Part shown: positions 7,374 to 38,662 of the stretch, one piece after another
How positions within the stretch are numbered: the first letter of the stretch is position 1
How the letters are laid out: the number at the start of each line of letters is the position of its first letter
IMG/VR virus record: IMGVR_UViG_3300036879_000022
Coordinates: 1-64,000 of that record
Length of the DNA: 64,000 bases
Strand: one strand, 5' to 3'
Source of the DNA: a virus
The notes under the pieces: generated by a model
The model's database searches: none
Told to the model about the DNA's origin: nothing
What the model saw: the letters and a program-made list of their open reading frames with translations, nothing else
Position numbers and translations under genes: made by a program

Positions 7374-7449
7374 TGGCTCAGGGAGTAGGGCTCGAACCTA
7401 CGACCTACGCTTTAACAGAGCGCCGCTCTACCATCTGAGCTATCCCCAA
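7374..7449 (-). tRNA. tRNA-Asn(GTT)
   Basis: Cloverleaf; anticodon loop CT-GTT-AA; encoded CCA. Confidence 0.9.
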
Positions 7450-7455
7450 AAACCA

Positions 7456-7530
7456 TGGTGCCCGTGGCTGGTATCGAACCAGCGACCTGACGGTTATCAA
7501 CCGCCCGCTCTACCACTGAGCTACACGGGG
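7456..7530 (-). tRNA. tRNA-Ile(GAT)
   Basis: Cloverleaf; loop TT-GAT-AA; CCA. Confidence 0.9.
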
Positions 7531-7568
7531 CATTCGCACTAGCAAGCGGTCGCGCGCTTGCACTAATT

Positions 7569-7645
7569 TGGTGGACCGGGTCGGCTTCGAACCGACGACC
7601 CCCTGCTTGCAAAACAGGCGCTCTCCCAACTGAGCTACGCGGCCC
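7569..7645 (-). tRNA. tRNA-Ala(TGC)
   Basis: Loop TT-TGC-AA; G3:U70; CCA; one bulged base in the acceptor stem. Confidence 0.9.
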
Positions 7646-7685
7646 GCTGTCCCGAATTTGTATACAAATTTGGGACAGAAACTTT

Positions 7686-7763
7686 TGGTGACGGACGCTT
7701 GGATTTGAACCAAGGACCCTCGGGTTATGAGCCCGACGCTCTACCGGGCTGAGCTACGCCGTC
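7686..7763 (-). tRNA. tRNA-Met(CAT)
   Basis: Loop CT-CAT-AA; GGG/CCC anticodon stem; CCA. Confidence 0.88.
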
Positions 7764-7764
7764 A

Positions 7765-7840
7765 TGGTGCGAAGAGATGGGGTTGAACCACCGACGCGCA
7801 CGCTTTCAACGTGCCGCTCTACCAACTGAGCTATCTTCGC
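7765..7840 (-). tRNA. tRNA-Phe(GAA)
   Basis: Loop TT-GAA-AG; CCA. Confidence 0.92.
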
Positions 7841-7855
7841 GAAATCTAAAAGCCG

Positions 7856-7933
7856 TGGTGCCGCTGGAATGGATTTGAACCTTCGACCTACCCCTTACGA
7901 AAGGATTGCTCTACCGGGCTGAGCTACAGCGAC
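7856..7933 (-). tRNA. tRNA-Thr(CGT)
   Basis: Loop TT-CGT-AA; CCA. Confidence 0.88.
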
Positions 7934-7934
7934 A

Positions 7935-8008
7935 TGGCACGGGCTCTAGGATTTGAACCTAGACTGACGGGTTCAGAGCCCGTTGGGCTACCGTTACACC
8001 AAACCCGC
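7935..8008 (-). tRNA. tRNA-Gln(CTG)
   Basis: Loop CT-CTG-AA; CCA. Confidence 0.9.
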
Positions 8009-8009
8009 A

Positions 8010-8083
8010 TGGCACAGGATCAAGGTTTCGAACCTTGGCCAGCGGTTTTGGAGACCGCCGTGCTACCGCTACACCAATCCTGT
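8010..8083 (-). tRNA. tRNA-Trp(CCA)
   Basis: Loop CT-CCA-AA; G73; CCA. Confidence 0.92.
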
Positions 8084-8141
8084 AAAGATCAGGACCAGCT
8101 TTGCGATTGCGCGGCGGCGATAATAGTCGATGTGGGATTAT

Positions 8142-8220
8142 TGGTCAGGGCGGCAGGATTTGAACCTGCGTTCTTCTGGGTCCGGGCCAGACGGGGACAG
8201 CCAAACTCCCCCACGCCCTG
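8142..8220 (-). tRNA. tRNA-Pro(CGG)
   Basis: C1-G72, A73; loop CC-CGG-AC (C33 is unusual); CCA. Confidence 0.8.
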
Positions 8221-8434
8221 TTTAGGGCTTGGGTTGGTCGGGCTGTTTGCGCTGCGGCTCATCATCGGAACATCCTCGGTCTTCGACGTTGTAGGCGTGC
8301 GTATGACGCCTCGTTCGTTTCCCAGTGCATCCCCGCGAAGCTACCCGACCGAAATCGGGGACCGCTCGAAAGCGGTGCTTCTACGGGGCGATGTAGACGG
8401 GCCACTGGGCTCTCGTCGCTAACTCAGGGTGCGG

Positions 8435-8463
8435 CTTATAGAGGAAGTCAAATGGCTTGTCAA
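8435..8463 (-). promoter_or_regulatory. sigma70-type promoter of the tRNA operon
   Basis: TTGACA-N17-TATAAG. Confidence 0.85.
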
Positions 8464-8657
8464 TCCCTAAATCGCCGCCCATGGATCAACTCGTGTATTC
8501 TGCATCTCATAGACCGCCTTGTTATAAGCGACAGCCGTCGCGCGCAGCGGATGATTGACGCATGCGGGGGAGCGCAGCCAGTTCACGAAAGCCTGAAACG
8601 TGTCGATCCGCATCGCGTGCGCCTCACGCAACGGGGCTTCGAGCCGGTCAATCTCTG

Positions 8658-10049
8658 TCAGTCCTTCCATGGGTCAAATTCTCCCTCGCCCGCCATCGCG
8701 ACGGCAAATGGTCGCAAAGTATGGAGCACCTTAACCGAACCCGCGTGGTGCGCCAGAACGTCCGGGAGCCTCCGGTATGCCATCGGGCTTTCGTCGAGAT
8801 CAGCGCCCACGAGCGTCACGCCACGGGCCTGAAGCCACTGATCCATCTGATCCTTGGTGAACGTGCGCTTGGCCTGCTTGCGGCCCATGACGCGGCCGGC
8901 GCCGTGCACGGTCGAATAGAGCGCGGCCTTGGCTTCGGGGCTATCGATGCCTTCGAGGATCACGGCGTCGTCGCCCATGGAGCCGCCGACGAAGCCCCTC
9001 TGGCCCGGGAACGCGGGCGTCGCGCCCTTGCGGACCACGAGCAGCTCGCGCTCGACGCCGTTGATGTTGTGCGTCTCTTTCCACGCGTAGTTGTGATGGT
9101 TGTGGATGCTCTCCGTGACGTTACCGCCGATGATCTGCCGGACGCGCTCGGTCACCCAGTTGCGGCCGGCGCAGGCGTACTCCCCGGCGAGCTTCATCGC
9201 TTCATAGTAGCGCGCACCGACCTCCGTGTTGAGGTTGACGACAGCGGGCGCAACGTTGATCCCATCGGTGCCGCCCGCGAGCTTGATATACTTGCTCGCC
9301 GACGTGTGGCCCAGACCACGCGAACCGAAGTGCACGCCGATCCAGACGTAGCCCTCTTCGTCGCGGAGGATGTCCACATAATGGTTGCCGGAGCCGACCG
9401 TGCCGAGCTGGGCTCGCGCCTTCTGGCGATAGTCTTCCATCTGGGCAGCGCGCCACACTTCATCCGCATCAAACAGCTCATGCTCGACACGCTCATCGTT
9501 CGAGCGCCCGACGCCAAATGAGATCGTCTTCTGCACGTCACGGATGATCGTCGGGATGTGCTCGGCGATGTCCGCGAACTTTGTGTCAAGCCGCACGGCC
9601 TTGTTGCCGCACCCGATGTCGAAGCCGACGCCGGAGATGGAGACGTGGCCCTTGTCGTATGCGATGACGCCGCCGACAGGCTGGGCGTAGCCGAGATGAC
9701 CGTCCGCACAGATCACGCCGGCCACGACGTTGCCGACCTTCATGCAGTTTTTCATCTGTTCGATCGTCTGATCGTCGTGCTCGCCGAAAATCGTCAGCGG
9801 CGCGTTCGCGTAGTCGGCCGTCTGGGCGGGCACCGACATTGCGGCGAGCTTGTCCGCGAGAACTTTCTGCTCGGCAGCAATCATTTCCTTGCGCGCGCCG
9901 TCACGGTACTCGGTCCATGCAGGGTGACCCCGGCCCATGGCCTGTTTCGTGGCGTCCCACTCTGCGCCATGTCGAGCGTCCGGGTTGAACCCGGCTTCGA
10001 GGCAGAGCTGGCGAGCGCGATGTTCATGCGGATCGGTACGTTGTGCCAA
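8658..10049 (-). CDS. rtcB: RtcB RNA ligase (3'-phosphate/5'-OH)
   Basis: DGHLGY-PVG, GFDIGCG, LGTVGSGNHY, HNHHN, RKGAT, GSMG, HGAGR, DESPMAYR. Confidence 0.97.
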   Translation of the reverse strand: MAQRTDPHEHRARQLCLEAGFNPDARHGAEWDATKQAMGRGHPAWTEYRDGARKEMIAAEQKVLADKLAAMSVPAQTADYANAPLTIFGEHDDQTIEQMKNCMKVGNVVAGVICADGHLGYAQPVGGVIAYDKGHVSISGVGFDIGCGNKAVRLDTKFADIAEHIPTIIRDVQKTISFGVGRSNDERVEHELFDADEVWRAAQMEDYRQKARAQLGTVGSGNHYVDILRDEEGYVWIGVHFGSRGLGHTSASKYIKLAGGTDGINVAPAVVNLNTEVGARYYEAMKLAGEYACAGRNWVTERVRQIIGGNVTESIHNHHNYAWKETHNINGVERELLVVRKGATPAFPGQRGFVGGSMGDDAVILEGIDSPEAKAALYSTVHGAGRVMGRKQAKRTFTKDQMDQWLQARGVTLVGADLDESPMAYRRLPDVLAHHAGSVKVLHTLRPFAVAMAGEGEFDPWKD

Positions 10050-27536: not shown

Positions 27537-27827
27537 TCATCGCAGAACTCCCGCCGAGCTGTTGATGTATTGACACGGGCTGAGCCCGCTCGGTGACCGC
27601 TCGTACTTGAAGCGCGGCACTCCGTTCGCGACCTCCTGTACGAACCGAATGAGGCGCTGAGTGTAGATCGGCGCGAGCTGCGCATTTCCCCACGTGTAGT
27701 CCGTATAGACGACTACGGCGTGGCCTTCATCGTCTCGGGCCATGCCGATGATCGTGTAGAGGCCGCTCTTATAGTGCCTCCACGCCTCGCCAGTCGCGGG
27801 CATCCGGAAGTCCTGTTGCACGGTCAA
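27537..27827 (-). CDS. DUF1653-like protein
   Basis: WRHYKSGLYTIIGMA...VVVY. Confidence 0.75.
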   Translation of the reverse strand: MTVQQDFRMPATGEAWRHYKSGLYTIIGMARDDEGHAVVVYTDYTWGNAQLAPIYTQRLIRFVQEVANGVPRFKYERSPSGLSPCQYINSSAGVLR

Positions 27828-29134
27828 AAGTCATCTCCATCGTCATCGTCATCGGCGAACTCGTTGACTGCATCGTCGAGCACGCTTGTCGCCTCGCGCG
27901 GGTCGTAGCCGGGCGCGATCGTCAATTTCCCGTTCGGCATGAAGGCCAGCTCGCCAATGGCTTTCTTGACCCGCTTACGCTGATCCTTGCCGACGCCGAG
28001 CTTCTCCAACTGCGCGGGCGTCTTGAGTTTGGGCTCAACATAGAGGTCTTCGACCGCGAGCCCGATGTAGTCGATATCCGGGCCAAGCTCTTCAGCCGAC
28101 GCGGTCAGGCGCCGTTTCGTTTCCTCGGGATCGATCAGACGCCGCTTCGACTTCCCACGTACAAGCTTCCAGTCGCCCACGGCGTTGCCATTCTCAAGCT
28201 CACGCTGGATATCGCCCTTGATGTTGTTGCACCATGCTTCGATCACCGGAAGCCATTCGGCCTTGTGTGCCAGCTCCTTGGTGCTTGTCGGCAACGGCAG
28301 TTGAGCCGGCGGCTCGTCTTCCGTGAAGTCGGCCTGCGCCTCTTCAAGCAACATGCTGTCGAACTCGGTACAGCGGCGCTTGGCCGGGCACCATAGGCAC
28401 CAATCGCCTGCACGCAGCGGCGCATTCGGCGCGTCCGTCGCGTCGGCCGCTTCCTTCATCCTGATCTCGTAGAGCTTCAGCTCATCGATCGAATAGCTCT
28501 CGGATCGGATGGTCCCTTCCTTGTGCGGGGCATGCGGTTGGGAGATCGTGACCGTGACGCCTTCGCAGTCGGGATGCTCATGCGCGGCAAGAACCGCGTA
28601 CTGCTTGAGCTGATCGTTATCCTTCGCCTCGACGATGATGTAGCCGTTCTTGTGATCGACGATGTCGAGCCATCCGTAGGGCTCGGCAACGCGAACGTCG
28701 ATCGACCCGCCGAAGCGATGGTCTAGCCACGAGCCGTCGAGATAGACCTCGGAGTAGACCTCCGGCGCGAAGCGGGCCGCCTTGATGCGGCCAACCTCGT
28801 CAATGGTTTGCTGCACGCCTTCGACCATCTTCTCATCGGCGACGAACATGAACCATCCCGGGCGCGCGTGCTCGGGATCGAGCGCAGGCTTGCCCGGGGG
28901 ATAATACTCGGTCTCTTCGTCACCGTCCGCCTTCACGAGGAAGGTTGAGCCTGCGTACTCGCTGGCGTCTTCGGCTCCGGCGATGATCATGATCTCGACG
29001 AGCTTGTGCGCGGCCGTGCCGAGCATCGCGGCTTGGCCTGTCGTTGAGCTTTCGTCGCCGATTAGGGCGATCGAGCCCGGACAGTTCATCCATCGGTGCG
29101 ACGCGGAGGGGGATAGCTTTGCGTGGCCGGCCAT
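27824..29134 (-). CDS. PD-(D/E)XK (Cas4-like) nuclease, DUF2800 family
   Basis: HAKLSPSASHRWMNCPGS, GTAAH, GGSID, DHKNG, QLKQYA, GDWCLWCPAK; GAAGGA RBS before ATG 29134. Confidence 0.9.
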   Translation of the reverse strand: MAGHAKLSPSASHRWMNCPGSIALIGDESSTTGQAAMLGTAAHKLVEIMIIAGAEDASEYAGSTFLVKADGDEETEYYPPGKPALDPEHARPGWFMFVADEKMVEGVQQTIDEVGRIKAARFAPEVYSEVYLDGSWLDHRFGGSIDVRVAEPYGWLDIVDHKNGYIIVEAKDNDQLKQYAVLAAHEHPDCEGVTVTISQPHAPHKEGTIRSESYSIDELKLYEIRMKEAADATDAPNAPLRAGDWCLWCPAKRRCTEFDSMLLEEAQADFTEDEPPAQLPLPTSTKELAHKAEWLPVIEAWCNNIKGDIQRELENGNAVGDWKLVRGKSKRRLIDPEETKRRLTASAEELGPDIDYIGLAVEDLYVEPKLKTPAQLEKLGVGKDQRKRVKKAIGELAFMPNGKLTIAPGYDPREATSVLDDAVNEFADDDDDGDDF

Positions 29135-29154
29135 TTCGTTTCCTTCTAAAAAGT

Positions 29155-29312
29155 TGGCGCGCTGGGGAGGACCGGACCCTCCATCCATACTCTACGTTTC
29201 GATTTCGTCTCGGCGTCCCGGCCACTTCCGTCAGGTCTCGCCTGATGGCGTTGTGTGGCGACGACTACTGACTACCTCGTAAAGTCGCTCTGTCTGTTTG
29301 AGCTACCAGCGC
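29155..29312 (-). ncRNA. tRNA-like RNA with ~80-nt insertion in place of the anticodon loop
   Basis: GCGCTGG/CCAGCGC acceptor + G-CCA; GCTC/GAGC D stem; ACTTTACG/CGTAGAGT stem; GGAGG/CCTCC T stem. Confidence 0.7.
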
Positions 29313-29322
29313 AAATTTGGTT

Positions 29323-29397
29323 TGGAGGATCAGGCGGGTGCTTCCCCCACTCATACGAGTTTTGCAGACCCGCGCGTTCGTGTTTCGCCACCGACCC
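29323..29397 (-). tRNA. non-canonical tRNA-Cys(GCA)
   Basis: GGGTCGG/CTGATCC acceptor, U73, CCA; loop CT-GCA-AA; deviant D and T loops. Confidence 0.7.
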
Positions 29398-29400
29398 TAA

Positions 29401-29760
29401 TCAGGCAACCGTATAGGGGAACGTGATCGGCTTGCGGCCGACGCGAACGTCCCACGCCATCATGTCGTCCTTGAAGACGCAACAGTAGCGCTTGTTGACC
29501 TTGATCTGATCGTCCTCGACGCCCTCGGGATGCTCCCACTCGTCATCCTCGCCAGTCAGTGGCGTAAGCGGCATGCCACGGGCGAGCGTCTCGAAGACCG
29601 CGAGCGTCTGCTCGGCGCCTCCGCCGGAGTGACCATAGGCCGTGAAGACCTCCATCAACGACGTGACTTGCACGGCGACATCGCCGTTGTATTCGGCGTC
29701 CGCGTCGAAGAGGCCGGCGGCGCGGAGTTCGCGCTTGGCGTGTTGGCTGAGCCTACTCAT
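29401..29760 (-). CDS. hypothetical protein
   Basis: GHSGGGA...PLTPLTGEDDEW...NKR conserved-looking phage protein. Confidence 0.7.
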   Translation of the reverse strand: MSRLSQHAKRELRAAGLFDADAEYNGDVAVQVTSLMEVFTAYGHSGGGAEQTLAVFETLARGMPLTPLTGEDDEWEHPEGVEDDQIKVNKRYCCVFKDDMMAWDVRVGRKPITFPYTVA

Positions 29761-30636
29761 TTTCGAAACCTCTTGATGATACGACCCTTGAGGATACAAC
29801 TGCGCAGCCGGGTCGCGACATGGCTACCGTCTTCGTCTTCCTTGTCTTCGTAGTCGCGCGCGATGTGCGCGACCGTCGTGATCGTCTTCGGCGTGACCTC
29901 GACAACGAAACCGACAGTCTCGCAAATCGAAGGCGTCAGCGCCCCGACAATCTTCTCCTTGATGTCGAGCCATCCTTTACCGTCGTATGTGCAGTGGTCT
30001 TCCCACAACACGTAGACGAGATCGCCGACCTTCGGATCGAATTTAATCATCAACCTTGGCCCCGTAAACGATGTCCACGCCCCGCTCGTTGCCTTCGACG
30101 CCGACCTTCACATTCATGTACTGACCAACCTTCGGCGCAGCGACCCCCAAGCGAATGGTTTCGGAGCCGTCATCCGAGGTCACGACAGCTTCCGCGACGG
30201 CGCCCGCCGTCGAGACGTTGAATAGCACGACGCTCCAGCCGGGGGCAGGCGTGATCCTGACGTGGTCTTTGCTGATATGACGGACGGTTGCGGGGGCGGC
30301 AGTGAGGGTCATGACTGATCCATCGGCACGGGGAGAGGGTTCTGAGCTGCGATCTGGGCCATGCGCGCTTCGTGCTGCGCCAGCTTGATCTTCTCCTTGA
30401 GCCGGGCCTGCTTGCCCAGCATGTCCTTGATCGCCGGAGGATAGCTCTCGAAGCTGGCGTCGCCGATATGCGTCGAGACAGCACGCCACCCGTAAGTTCG
30501 GTCGGGCTTGCGGTCCAACTGTTCGACATGGAAAATGAGGTTGAGGTCGTTCACGACGATGCGAAGTGCTCGGGTGGGGACTGCAACGGCGAGGACACGC
30601 CAGCCCTCGGGGCAAGCGTTGATGATCTTTCCTGCT

Positions 30637-31056
30637 TCAACTGCATCCATTGTGTTTGGCCCAGCGCGCGATATGGTGTTGGATAGGTATACCGCGTTTG
30701 ATGTCGTAGTCAATCCATCCGCAAAGGCGCATACGCACGCCCTTCATGATGTTCTTCGTTACGGGGAGGCCCTCATTGCGGAAGCAATGAAGCGCGAAAC
30801 GCTCTGCCTCAAACTCTTCGCGATGTTTCGGAAGCTTGAGCTTGAAGTGGTCCTGCTTGACGTGTCCGACTTCGTGAAGGTAGAGAAATAGGCTGTCGTC
30901 GTCCTTGAGCGTAGGAACGGAAAGGGTGCGTTTGTTGCTATCGGCCTCTGCGCTTTCCCAAGTCCATCGGTGCTGGCTCTGTCGAACGCGCCAGCCTCGC
31001 GGCCTGTGCCGCTTGACGATCTCATTGATCCTCTCCTGCGACAGCTTGCGGCTCAT
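30637..31056 (-). CDS. HExxH zinc metallopeptidase-like protein (ImmA/IrrE-like)
   Basis: YLHEVGH...EEFEAERFA. Confidence 0.7.
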   Translation of the reverse strand: MSRKLSQERINEIVKRHRPRGWRVRQSQHRWTWESAEADSNKRTLSVPTLKDDDSLFLYLHEVGHVKQDHFKLKLPKHREEFEAERFALHCFRNEGLPVTKNIMKGVRMRLCGWIDYDIKRGIPIQHHIARWAKHNGCS

Positions 31057-31360
31057 CGGGTGGCTCCCATCGGACGACGACAACGCCGGAGGTTCCAAAC
31101 CTCGGGTCGCGTGACTTGTGCACGGTGACCGTCACGCCTGCATCCATCAATGGCGCCAACTCCGCCGCAAGACCGCGCGGAAGGTGCCCGAGTTTTTGAT
31201 TGAAGATGTGGAGCGAGATAGCGTTGGGATCGTACTTGTTCGTGGGCTCCCGTTCAACTCGCAATTGCTGGCCGGGCCACAATCTCGGGATATGGTTTCC
31301 TGCTCCCGGATAGAAGCTGGAACCCATTATGGACGCTTGTCTTTCTTGGAGGGCCATCAA
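31022..31360 (-). CDS. HIRAN domain protein
   Basis: LRVEREPTNKYDPNAI...KLGHLPR. Confidence 0.85.
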   Translation of the reverse strand: MMALQERQASIMGSSFYPGAGNHIPRLWPGQQLRVEREPTNKYDPNAISLHIFNQKLGHLPRGLAAELAPLMDAGVTVTVHKSRDPRFGTSGVVVVRWEPPDEPQAVAGEDQ

Positions 31361-36013: not shown

Positions 36014-36038
36014 AACAGGTAGCTGCCTATGGTAGACG
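36010..36038 (+). promoter_or_regulatory. promoter positioned to initiate at tRNA-Gly position 1
   Basis: TTGAAA-N17-TAGACG. The same -10 hexamer occurs upstream of the primase and of 51179. Confidence 0.6.
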
Positions 36039-36733
36039 AAGTTCGCGACTGTAGCTCAATGTTAGAGCACCCCGGGTCCACTGGGGAAGATGGCGGTGCA
36101 ATTCCGACCCGGTCGCTCCATATCAAACAAATCCCCGTTGCCCAAGCCCGTGCGTTCATCAAGATGTGGCACAGTCGTTTGCCCAATTGCGATGGGCCTT
36201 TCAAGATCGCGTTTGGGGCGTTCGATCAGGGCGGCTACCTCATGGCGGCTGCACTCTGGCATAACTGCTCAGCGCGAAACCTCCCGCAAGACTGGACTGA
36301 GTTGCGGCGCATGGCTGTCGCCAGCATGTACGCGCCACCGAATACGGCGTCCATCATGATCGGCCAAATGGTCAGATGGTTCAAGAGAGAAGGCAAAGCG
36401 ACAACGCTCGTCTCTTATCAGGACCTCGGTGAAGGCGCCCCTAACTCAGTAGGGTTCGTCAAGCATACCGGCACGATCTACAAAGCAACTAATTGGACCC
36501 CGGTAGCGATCAGCCGTCCGCGTCTTCGAACCCGCACAGTAGCGGATCAAGATTGGGTCAAGAATGGTCGGAAGGTGTACCGCCGTAATGACAAAAACCT
36601 CACGCCGGAGGGGACGACCGACGCTATCGCATCCGCGAAAGTCCGTTGGCAGTACAGCTTGCGAGGCGAGAAGTTCACTGCCCTGACCCCGGAGCAGATC
36701 GAGGCCGCCCGAAGGATGAAGCCGACCAAATAG
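36029..36733 (+). CDS. Mom-like adenine modification enzyme (GNAT fold)
   Basis: ARAFIKMWHSRLP, ELRRMAV, PNTAS, LVSYQD, HTGTIYKATNW motifs of the Mu Mom family; start codon uncertain. Confidence 0.8.
   Translation: MVDEVRDCSSMLEHPGSTGEDGGAIPTRSLHIKQIPVAQARAFIKMWHSRLPNCDGPFKIAFGAFDQGGYLMAAALWHNCSARNLPQDWTELRRMAVASMYAPPNTASIMIGQMVRWFKREGKATTLVSYQDLGEGAPNSVGFVKHTGTIYKATNWTPVAISRPRLRTRTVADQDWVKNGRKVYRRNDKNLTPEGTTDAIASAKVRWQYSLRGEKFTALTPEQIEAARRMKPTK
36045..36120 (+). tRNA. non-canonical tRNA-Gly(TCC) embedded in the mom-like ORF
   Basis: 76 nt; GCGACTG/CGGTCGC acceptor, U73, CCA; GCTC/GAGC D stem; CCCCG/TGGGG anticodon stem with TCC; T loop TGCAATT. Confidence 0.85.
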
Positions 36734-38236: not shown

Positions 38237-38630
38237 GCGATCGATACAACGGACGAGGCTTTGGCCCTCACGTACCAAGGTGCGCAAAGAGGGATGGGTA
38301 GCGAGCGGTTGACCAATCGAGCGTGATGGTTCTGAATGTTGAGACGGACTGCGGTCAGACCCGGGGGCAGTACCCGGCGCCTCCACCACGAGCAGCGCGA
38401 TGAGGCATGGATGCCTTGCACTAAATGTGCGTACACCCCTCGGGGAACACGCGCTGCTTCTGATGGGGGCGACACAGGATCGATGGACGCTCGGAAAGTC
38501 TCGAAAGTGAACTCGGCGTGATCTGCCGCGATCGGATCAAACACCTAAATGACAACGACAACTTTGTCATGGATCAGCGCCTCGCGGCGTAACGTTCCGG
38601 GGTTGGTCGCCTAGCAACAGAAAGACCCCA
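38237..38630 (+). ncRNA. ssrA: two-piece (circularly permuted) tmRNA
   Basis: Promoter TTGACA-N17-TAGTCT. Acceptor piece ends ...CGCCTCCACCA at 38388. Coding piece starts GGGGGCG at 38465 (G3:U). Tag frame 38551-38592 reads DNDNFVMDQRLAA*. Confidence 0.93.
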
Positions 38631-38631
38631 G

Positions 38632-38662
38632 ACGCCCTAGCCGCAAGGCTGGGGCGTTTTGC
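38632..38662 (+). terminator. tmRNA terminator
   Basis: ACGCCCTAGCC-GCAA-GGCTGGGGCGT-TTT. Confidence 0.85.

Follow-up and report, generated by a model that had tools for sequence, protein, structure and literature searches.

The tRNA-shaped element and its fold

A stretch of viral DNA of 64,000 nucleotides (nt), hereafter called the window, was analysed. It comprises positions 1 to 64,000 of the IMG/VR virus record IMGVR_UViG_3300036879_000022, which has a length of 84,382 bp and is about 80% complete. The analysis concerned a tRNA-shaped element of 158 nt on the minus strand (29155..29312), with index 1 of the element at 29312 and index 158 at 29155. The element is situated inside a 266-nt non-coding spacer between a Tad3-family gene and a DUF2800 gene of the phage. 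It begins 10 nt after a tRNA-Cys-like gene, and 20 nt separate its CCA end from the DUF2800 start codon that follows (ATG at 29134).

The minimum free energy (MFE) fold of the whole RNA, computed with ViennaRNA, had an energy of -57.3 kcal/mol and recovered the whole cloverleaf, the parts of which are collected in Table 1. The base pairs of the shell were intact in 24 of 24 cases, and the parts that are read by tRNA-processing enzymes were kept, namely the 7-bp acceptor stacked on a 5-bp T stem, the D stem, the core and G73-CCA. When the core was read against the textbook tRNA, the nucleotides U8, A9, A14, A21, G26, A44, G46 and U48 were present, as were the pairs U12-A23 and C13-G22. The elbow of a tRNA comprises G18 and G19 of the D loop and T54, Psi55, C56, R57 and A58 of the T loop, TTCRA being the T-loop consensus. 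The D loop of the element, AAACAGACA, had a single G where G18 and G19 were expected, and its T loop, GUCCGGU, retained U55 and C56 and departed from TTCRA at positions 54, 57 and 58 (G54, C57 and G58).

At the place of the anticodon arm, the MFE fold contained a helix (helix A) formed by ACUUUACG and CGUAGAGU, which read ACTTTACG and CGTAGAGT in the DNA. It comprised 8 bp, of which seven were Watson-Crick and one was U.G, and its first 5 bp fell exactly in the register of the anticodon stem (27-31/39-43). The 5' strand of the helix included the ACG of a UUACGAG motif (29276-29282). In the predicted structure the anticodon loop would be replaced by, or buried under, this helix, which would bear an 81-nt three-helix domain. 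The insert was made up of a 13-nt single strand, AGGUAGUCAGUAG, a three-way junction and an 8-nt strand, AAUCGAAA. Its helices were P2 (UCGUC/GACGA), P3 (GCCAC/GUGGC) running into P4 (UCAGG-CGAGA-CCUGA), and P5 (CGG-GACG-CCG). No antisense target of the 13-nt single strand was found in the window. A 22-nt stretch of the insert with 73% complementarity to the start of the Cys-like gene was judged to be due to chance, as was a 17-nt direct repeat shared by the element and the HRWMNCPG codons of the DUF2800 gene. In addition to the 7-nt tandem repeat GUAGUCA GUAGUCG, a third, diverged copy, GUAGAGU, was present at 29189-29195 as part of the 3' strand of helix A. The tandem repeat suggests that replication slippage may have occurred when the element arose.

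A preliminary description of the locus had reported a tRNA-like RNA in which a structured insert of ~80 nt occupies the site of the anticodon loop. It had also noted the nested stems GCCAC/GTGGC and TCAGG/CCTGA, D and T loops that are both non-canonical, and a position 20 nt upstream of the DUF2800 start. Every one of these elements was found at the place given for it. The insert measured 81 nt and was closed by a helix, both nested stems were recovered in the MFE fold, and the distance to the ATG was as described; the loops were indeed non-canonical, though U55, C56 and one D-loop G remained.

A second arrangement of the anticodon region was also considered. In hairpin B, GACU-UUACGAGGU-AGUC (index 27-43, 29270..29286, minus strand), a 4-bp stem carries the loop that resembles those of Arg(ACG) tRNAs. 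The fold in which hairpin B was forced had an energy of -56.7 kcal/mol, 0.6 above the optimum, and its ensemble probability was ~0.085 against ~0.55 for helix A. The hairpin has four pairs and a 9-nt loop, and residue 26, which should separate the D stem from the arm, is missing. The fold strands 22 nt ahead of the T arm, among them the 8 nt that are complementary to the anticodon region. Helix A was kept as the primary predicted fold because a 4-bp hairpin is expected by chance, whereas 8 bp in the exact register of a tRNA are not; hairpin B was retained as a live alternative.

Table 1. Coordinates of the parts of the element and of the three genes next to it
Feature	Position	Strand	Basis
Whole tRNA-shaped gene, 158 nt	29155..29312	-	Sequence; cloverleaf in MFE fold; sole long CCA-ending descriptor match in the window
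Acceptor 5' strand GCGCUGG, pairs with 29159-29165	29306..29312	-	7/7 Watson-Crick; pair probability 0.97-1.0
U8 A9 (TA in DNA)	29304..29305	-	Sequence
D arm GCUC / AAACAGACA / GAGC, 9-nt loop	29287..29303	-	4-bp stem, probability 0.99-1.0
G26 spacer	29286	-	Sequence
Helix A 5' strand ACUUUACG (DNA ACTTTACG), pairs with 29189-29196	29278..29285	-	Probability 0.50-0.55
Insert, 81 nt	29197..29277	-	Same helices in MFE of whole RNA and of insert alone (-23.9 kcal/mol)
7-nt tandem repeat GUAGUCA GUAGUCG (index 38-51)	29262..29275	-	Sequence; 16-mer spanning it unique in the window
Variable loop AUGGAU	29183..29188	-	Sequence
T arm GGAGG / GUCCGGU / CCUCC	29166..29182	-	5/5 Watson-Crick; 7-nt loop; abuts acceptor 3' strand
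Acceptor 3' strand CCAGCGC	29159..29165	-	Sequence
Encoded CCA (discriminator G73 at 29158)	29155..29157	-	Sequence
tRNA-Cys(GCA)-like gene, deviant, 10 nt upstream of the element	29323..29397	-	Sequence and conservation in L001, L006, L056, L150
Tad3-family protein gene (Thoeris inhibitor family), upstream	29401..29799	-	Pfam PF25185, E 2.6e-23
DUF2800 / PD-(D/E)XK nuclease, downstream, first gene of replication module	27824..29134	-	Pfam PF10926, E 7.7e-50, and PF12705

Detection, ancestry and genomic context

The folding z-score of the whole RNA was -1.67, which is weak when taken alone. Therefore, a descriptor of tRNA geometry was used as the control for chance. It consisted of 7 bp, 2 nt, a 4-bp D stem with a loop of 7-11 nt, a 5-7-5 T arm abutting the acceptor 3' strand, and N-CCA, with a total length of 96-260 nt; it was drawn up after the element had been seen, yet it contained textbook tRNA geometry only. 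In the window, the element was the sole match. Dinucleotide-shuffled windows (n=617) gave 27 matches, and only one when a 5-bp helix at the anticodon position was required, that is, a helix of at least 5 bp in the anticodon register was present in 1 of the 27 shell matches from the shuffles. The descriptor had no match in 545 kb of related loci and one homologous pair of CCA-ending matches in 465 kb of the five whole relatives and the rest of the phage. This pair (G003:361-546 = G004:55657-55842; 186 nt, CCA) was located in long open reading frames (ORFs), had neither the helix nor a cloverleaf and scored a z of -0.32; it was judged to be due to chance. The shell combined with the anticodon-position helix was not found in ~1 Mb of related phage DNA. 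Shell-like matches without CCA numbered ~4 per window. The element was regarded as a real feature that is unlikely to have arisen by chance.

The preliminary description had proposed ARAGORN with introns enabled and Rfam as checks, and neither of them called the element. ARAGORN gave no call on it by default or with introns allowed; at the 80% threshold its call coincided exactly with 29155-29312, but the model was contrived, a Ser(CGA) in which one stem was mismatched and 63 nt were assigned to an intron. No Rfam family was assigned at gathering thresholds, and no meaningful match, to RF00005 or any other family, was present at E<=10 in 29050-29450. The Rfam tRNA model (RF00005), when run over the whole 84-kb record, returned the nine tRNAs of the main array and a sub-threshold Gly-like gene, not the element. 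The ends of the element were those of a canonical tRNA (7-bp acceptor, G73, CCA, and a 5-bp T stem with a 7-nt loop abutting the acceptor). No 5-bp stem closing a 7-nt loop with U33 was present, and the elbow had one G in the D loop and only U55 and C56 in the T loop. Because of the missing 5-bp/7-nt anticodon arm, the deviant elbow and the sub-threshold result in tRNA finders, the element appears unlikely to be an ordinary decoder.

Homologues were sought with a covariance model (R1), which was built from the element alone as a single sequence, so that distant homologues could be missed, and which was run over five whole relatives, 80 of the 114 DUF2800-anchored metagenome loci and 80 of the 206 Tad3-anchored viral loci. 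The element was not found in the five whole relatives by blastn or R1, and the DUF2800-anchored loci gave just one fragment with E=9.3. The match obtained among the Tad3-anchored loci (L165, E=0.86) was rejected, being a terminator-like hairpin behind an ORF. A blastn search of the element against 50,697 phage records returned only matches of 24-27 nt with E values of 0.6-7, and a 1.3-kb region around it gave nothing at 1e-5. Exact and wildcard patterns of the element had 0 matches in IMG/VR. A scan of genome contigs recovered only 4 distant Lachnospiraceae prophage loci, which were uninformative on the host and on the element.

The same spacer carried other contents in the relatives. In L001, L006 and L056, the DUF2800 proteins of which are 77-78% identical, the spacer consisted of the Cys-like gene and then ran straight into the DUF2800 ribosome-binding site. 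The locus L073 is closer (94% DUF2800 identity over the first 207 residues), and its spacer was an unrelated one of 124 nt (L073:1066-1189, plus strand) with an MFE of -46.2 kcal/mol and a z of -1.69. It folded into a small GC hairpin followed by a 75-nt four-way junction, cloverleaf-like and with a 6-bp closing stem, in which a T-arm-like hairpin of 5 bp and 7 nt (CCCGG-UGGAAAU-CCGGG) abutted the closing stem; no CCA was present. A plain hairpin was found in the spacer of the L002 group and a different sequence in that of L003 and L004. Judged from these sequences, the element is probably a lineage-specific addition to a variable cargo spacer. Elsewhere in the relatives, a 29.1-bit Rfam tRNA match without an ARAGORN call was recorded in a complete 127-kb genome (G005:C1:97690-97761, L143), and it may be another deviant tRNA-like gene outside the main array.

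The ancestry of the element was assessed against 168 ARAGORN-called tRNAs from 13 sources. A D loop ending in ACA, which places an A at position 20, was present in 5 of the 11 reference tRNA-Arg and in 0 of the 157 others; the loop of the element ends in GACA, as the GGACA of Arg does. The bacterial identity of Arg is described as consisting of A20 (the main determinant), C35, U/G36 and A/G73 (PMC9976931). Among the 20 isotypes, Arg had the highest mean similarity (7.5) over the D arm, variable loop and T arm, and Val was close to it (6.8). The closest real tRNA found was an Arg(UCU) (L271:7603-7679), which shares with the element the acceptor 5' strand, the D stem, the GACU after the D stem and G73; the search that found it had used the acceptor 5' strand and D stem of the element itself as its seed. 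This pattern occurred in 23 viral loci, ten of which coincided with ARAGORN tRNAs: three Val, two Arg(UCU), Lys, Ile, Met, Ala and one unassigned. Since the isotypes were mixed, the acceptor/D half alone names no isotype.

Further, the UUACGAG motif at index 31-37 resembled the reference Arg(ACG) loops CUACGAA and UUACGGA (L260:2079, L261:3257, L271:8451). It was located 2 nt nearer to the D stem than an anticodon loop should be, and its ACG was paired in the best fold. We proposed that the element probably descends from a tRNA-Arg, likely one with ACG, through slippage, a small deletion and an insertion.

Several other candidates for ancestry were rejected. The pattern of the T arm and acceptor 3' strand occurred at 4 loci, none of them a tRNA, and gave no signal of ancestry. 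The R1 scores of L254 and L256 (E 0.004 and 0.03) were produced by the search pattern itself in a long hairpin shared by the two. The match in L270 (15 bits) lies in a coding frame whose translation reads as ParB-like. Among the phage's own tRNAs, tRNA-Thr(CGU) had the top shell similarity (22 against <=13), which came from a shifted CGCUG/CAGCG acceptor core. As a separate observation, L254:382-512 (minus strand) and L256:3171-3260 (plus strand), two unrelated GC-rich viral contigs, have in common a conserved hairpin, GGGGCGC..GGGGAGGGUUCAUCCCUCCCC..GCGCCCC, followed by GGGUUAA(C)ACCCC; it surfaced only through containing the T-stem and acceptor letters of the element.

The protein upstream of the element belongs to the Tad3 family, and Tad3 is reported to be a protein inhibitor of the Thoeris sensor ThsB (PMC13728456). 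Downstream, the replication module comprises the DUF2800/PD-(D/E)XK nuclease, an Enc34-type single-strand-binding protein, a family A polymerase and a primase. The DUF2800 start at 29134 matches that of the relatives, the Pfam match begins at residue 4, and the Shine-Dalgarno-like AGAAGGAAA of the gene is located 12 nt beyond the element. In the spacer, neither a promoter-like nor a terminator-like site was found, and the ORFs overlapping the element (28983-29282 and 29044-29271 on the plus strand, 28920-29225 on the minus strand) had no Pfam family at E<=0.1.

The Cys-like gene has a canonical CUGCAAA loop, U73 and CCA, together with a deviant D loop, AACACGAA, and a deviant T loop, GGAAGCA. 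It was missed by default ARAGORN and by Rfam. When compared with its copies in L001, L006, L056 and L150, it showed four double compensatory changes (pairs 2-71, 4-69, 27-43 and 51-63) and also several changes from G.U to G-C; the L001 copy ends in CTA rather than CCA. In the DNA run X17, U73 was replaced by C and a G.U was replaced by G-C in the acceptor. The same partial DNA variant had zero differences within the element.

A third deviant gene, a Gly(UCC)-like tRNA at 36045-36120 (plus strand), is situated inside the ORF 36029-36733 and overlaps the 5' end of an ORF of the Mom family (PF25680, E 5.6e-11). It was called by ARAGORN, and its Rfam tRNA score of 27.3 bits was below the threshold of 29 bits. 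Mom is reported in a 2026 paper to use charged tRNA-Gly for DNA hypermodification (PMC13219725). The Cys-like and Gly-like genes both have intact stems and an encoded CCA, a D loop without GG and a T loop without TTC, and both are located outside the main tRNA array, amid early, anti-defence and DNA-modification genes. Like the element, the other 11 tRNA and tRNA-like genes in the window all encode CCA, and no tRNA-Arg was found elsewhere among the tRNA genes of the phage.

The main array consists of nine canonical tRNAs with RtcB (PF01139, E 1.5e-67; 8658-10049) directly upstream. The whole spans 7374-10049 on the minus strand and reads Pro, Trp, Gln, Thr, Met, Ala, Ile, Phe and Asn. The order of the array genes is largely similar in the relatives G003, G004 and G005, with Phe and Met placed elsewhere in the array of the window and with an extra tRNA-Ser in G005. 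A gene for tmRNA of the alpha-proteobacterial, permuted (two-piece) type was located at 38268-38632 on the plus strand (RF01849, 120.7 bits; RF04321, 110.7 bits; no ARAGORN call); a phage-encoded tmRNA of this type hints at an alphaproteobacterial host. Small early genes included one with a HIRAN domain (31022-31360, minus strand, E 2.3e-14) and one with DUF1653 (27537-27827, minus strand, E 9.9e-08), and most ORFs between 26.2 and 33.5 kb had no Pfam family.

The phage was present in peat and permafrost metagenomes, and at least half of the sampled words of a 1.5-kb stretch were recovered in 17 DNA runs, 6 of which may represent the source sample itself. Metatranscriptome contigs from three runs covered 29354-29809 and 30047-30100 and none covered 29155-29312, a type of data in which assembled contigs cannot show small structured RNAs.

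Interpretation and rival explanations

It was proposed that the element is a real, functional, non-decoding RNA derived from a tRNA and acting as a mimic or scaffold, a reading that was held with a confidence falling just short of even. At least four loop positions that are invariant in working tRNAs were changed, with all 24 shell pairs, the core and the CCA intact. Such divergence of the loops with the stem pairs kept would point to selection on shape and not to neutral decay. The three readings of the preliminary description were supported in part. One of them was a tRNA scaffold displaying an RNA domain, and in the predicted structure this appears to be the best anatomical fit, the arms and core being kept and the insert being closed by a helix at the anticodon stem.

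The element would be transcribed together with the Tad3-family and Cys-like genes; the co-transcription was inferred because no promoter-like site was found between these genes. RNase P would then cut at G1 (29312) and 3' trimming would halt at the encoded CCA (29155), which would also release the DUF2800 mRNA. The tRNA frame would stabilise the released RNA, as in engineered tRNA scaffold RNAs, and the RNA would function in trans, as a mimic or as a frame for display, by occupying a host factor that binds tRNA. Because the spacer is variable and adjoins an anti-defence gene and the element has Arg-type features (A20-type D loop, G73, UUACGAG), the most likely targets would be host proteins that deal with tRNA-Arg or with the 3' ends of tRNAs, for instance a defence nuclease or an enzyme that modifies or charges tRNA. 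In the most specific form of this proposal, the tRNA-Arg chassis with its 81-nt aptamer-like domain would be an RNA-only counter-defence that binds and neutralises a host factor of this kind, perhaps a defence effector by which tRNAs are cut or modified. This form was considered speculative and rather unlikely. A tRNA-Arg-derived mimic beside an anti-defence gene would offer a handle on host factors, possibly defence effectors, that recognise tRNA-Arg.

The decoy for anticodon nucleases that the preliminary description had suggested would be possible only in the alternative fold, in which the UUACGAG loop is carried by a 4-bp stem at a cost of +0.6 kcal/mol, whereas the best fold has no anticodon loop to be cut. 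No route to charging was judged to be apparent in the primary predicted fold. In a review of identity elements, Ala identity is stated to need G3.U70, Leu A73 and His G-1/C73, and the other G73 systems to read the anticodon; Ser is stated to need a large variable region, C2-G71 (in tRNA-Leu) being a negative element against SerRS (PMC9976931).

A number of points weigh against the proposed mimic or scaffold. The expression, target and function of the element are predictions, and the scars of slippage and deletion (the tandem repeat and the ACG lying 2 nt too near to the D stem) would fit decay as well as invention. The partly kept elbow, with one D-loop G and with G54, C57 and G58, could weaken recognition by RNase P and by other readers of the elbow. 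The folding z-score was weak alone, the insert helices had only moderate probabilities (0.4-0.67), and an alternative fold was within 0.6 kcal/mol of the best one. No homologue was found in any searched set, so that covariation and conservation lend no support. The assignment to Arg is statistical and was obtained partly from a search seeded with the sequence of the element itself.

The strongest rival is a decaying gene, in which a duplication by slippage, a small deletion and the insertion of ~80 nt would have ruined a former phage tRNA-Arg gene so recently that its functionless remainder still has intact stems. The element is an orphan, absent under R1 from 5 whole relatives and 160 syntenic loci (80 + 80), and it contains the 7-nt tandem repeat with its third diverged copy, an ACG nearer to the D stem than the canonical place by 2 nt, non-canonical D and T loops and a score below the default threshold of every tRNA detector, all of which speak for decay. 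However, neutral stems should break at a rate similar to that of the loops, when 24 of 24 shell pairs, the core and the CCA were intact despite at least four changed invariant loop positions. An 8-bp helix in the exact register of the anticodon stem is also improbable by chance (at least 5 bp in 1 of 27 shuffled shell matches), and the two other elbow-deviant genes look functional, as the Cys-like gene covaries and the Gly-like gene overlaps the Mom gene. Decay was considered unlikely, though with an appreciable share of probability left to it. If the element is a recent wreck, it documents the gain and loss of small RNA genes in the spacer between an anti-defence gene and the replication module.

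The element could instead be a cis-acting processing signal, a site for RNase P and 3' trimming that splits the early Tad3 message from that of the replication genes and fixes where the DUF2800 mRNA begins, with the released RNA idle. As an RNase P processing site requires only the acceptor/T-arm half and RCCA, such a signal would account for the free variation of the elbow and anticodon region. It is consistent with the location of the element, 20 nt ahead of the DUF2800 start and 12 nt ahead of AGAAGGAAA, with a spacer that has no promoter-like or terminator-like site, and with the other structured elements that relatives hold in the same spacer. The Cys-like gene 10 nt upstream, however, would already provide a site of this kind, relatives of the L001 type manage with the Cys-like gene only and those of the L002 type with a plain hairpin, and an 81-nt structured insert with a preserved D arm and core exceeds what a cleavage signal needs. 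The explanation was considered improbable.

Slightly less probable again was a chargeable tRNA-Arg(ACG), in which hairpin B would be the anticodon arm, the next 87 nt a giant variable arm, and A20, C35, G36 and G73 the nucleotides read by ArgRS. The Arg-type D loop and G73, a UUACGAG motif like the loops of reference Arg(ACG), a fold only 0.6 kcal/mol dearer and the absence of any other tRNA-Arg in the phage are in its favour. Nevertheless, hairpin B lacks residue 26, pairs over 4 bp around a 9-nt loop and reaches an ensemble probability of 0.085; chance is expected to produce 4-bp hairpins of this sort, but not helix A. The arrangement would also leave 22 nt dangling, including 8 nt complementary to the anticodon region, and the elbow would remain deviant.

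The protein-spliced intron, the halves of which would be joined by the phage RtcB after an endonuclease had removed the insert, was the possibility that the preliminary description had named first, and it was not supported. RtcB is encoded by the phage, the insert is located in the anticodon region, which is the usual site of tRNA introns, and ARAGORN at its 80% threshold models a 63-nt intron. That relaxed model, however, is the contrived Ser(CGA) with a mismatched stem. A bulge-helix-bulge was absent from the fold, which had instead a 6x2 internal loop, 2 bp, a 1-nt bulge and a 3x3 loop and no 3-4-3 motif, and the tRNA splicing endonuclease family PF01974 was absent from the 84-kb record (~80% complete). 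The splice junctions that were tried by eye all gave a loop without U33, leaving A or C at 33. An RtcB next to tRNA arrays is the usual context of tRNA repair. The phage RtcB adjoins nine canonical tRNAs, and the repair of nuclease-cut tRNAs is sufficient to explain it there. Group I introns usually have at least 200 nt. The insert, as the preliminary description had rightly noted, is too short for one, 81 nt being well below the known sizes, and no group I or other ribozyme, small ribozymes included, was matched in Rfam at E<=10 in 29050-29450; a group I intron was ruled out on these two grounds. Splicing in general was considered very improbable.

Least probable of all was chance, with a GC-rich intergenic stretch folding like a cloverleaf, for the z-score of just -1.67 and the ~4 shell-like matches without CCA per window are outweighed by all criteria having been met together in 1 of 617 shuffles and nowhere in ~1 Mb of related DNA, by the Arg-specific ending of the D loop and the canonical core nucleotides, and by the tandem placement with another tRNA-like gene.

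Comparison with known systems

The element was compared with several known RNAs. It resembles canonical tRNA-Arg (RF00005) in the acceptor 5' strand, D stem, GACU and G73 of the L271 Arg(UCU), in the (G)GACA end of the D loop and in the UUACGAG, which is like the loops of Arg(ACG). It differs in length (158 nt against 74-77 nt), in having no 5-bp/7-nt anticodon arm, in the loss of G18 or G19 and in the T loop GUCCGGU.

The tRNA-like domain of tmRNA likewise has an acceptor stem, a T arm and a CCA around a large internal RNA, as well as a non-canonical D region. In contrast, the element has G3-C70 and not G3.U70, no tag frame with a stop (the frame from GCC at index 54 has none) and a length of only 158 nt, and the phage already has a tmRNA of the alpha type. 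No tmRNA was called in the element by Rfam or ARAGORN -m, and this assignment was rejected.

The Cys-like and Gly-like genes of the same phage differ from the element in their normal 7-nt anticodon loop and normal length. Additionally, the Gly-like gene has an evident client in the Mom-family enzyme, since Mom is reported to use Gly-tRNA (PMC13219725).

The YrlA Y RNAs consist of a tRNA-like module and a long helix at the place of the anticodon arm; some of them are described as cut by RNase P and CCA-bearing, and they are often found near RtcB loci (PMC4201824). Both they and the element join a tRNA-like module to a long helix where an anticodon arm would be, but the topology is reversed. YrlA ends in a long Ro60-binding stem and has a loop-closed acceptor, whereas in the element the acceptor ends are free and the long arm is closed. 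YrlA is also described as lying within 4 kb of a Ro60 gene, with GNCGAAN0-1G near the 5' end and near-canonical D and T loops (same source), and none of this is true of the element. The Ro60 (TROVE) family PF05731 had no match in the record, in a search to which the controls responded, and the GACGAA at index 104-109 of the element is followed by AU and is away from the 5' end. A YrlA-type Y RNA was therefore rejected on the missing TROVE gene, the missing 5' GNCGAAN0-1G and the reversed topology (PMC4201824).

The engineered tRNA scaffold RNAs of Ponchon and Dardel, in which a hairpin-closed insert replaces the anticodon stem-loop, are described as processed and stable in E. coli (PMC3753655). 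The element has the same architecture, as its acceptor, T and D arms are kept and the anticodon stem-loop is replaced by a helix-closed insert; in the laboratory system the frame is meant for the processing enzymes and for protection of the passenger (PMC3753655). The scaffold is a laboratory design in which the underlying tRNA is fully canonical and its elbow intact, whereas the element is natural and has deviant loops. In the open literature, as far as titles and the openings of abstracts go, no phage tRNA gene was found in which a structured domain replaces the anticodon loop. The architecture of the element works like that of a tRNA scaffold and its topology mirrors that of YrlA, and the element is a member of neither group nor of any Rfam family. 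The same phage presents the matter in small, with nine ordinary tRNAs by RtcB and three elbow-deviant tRNA-like genes among the early genes. If the RNA is made and is stable, it would be a natural counterpart of the laboratory tRNA-scaffold trick and a further case of phage tRNA genes reshaped beyond decoding.

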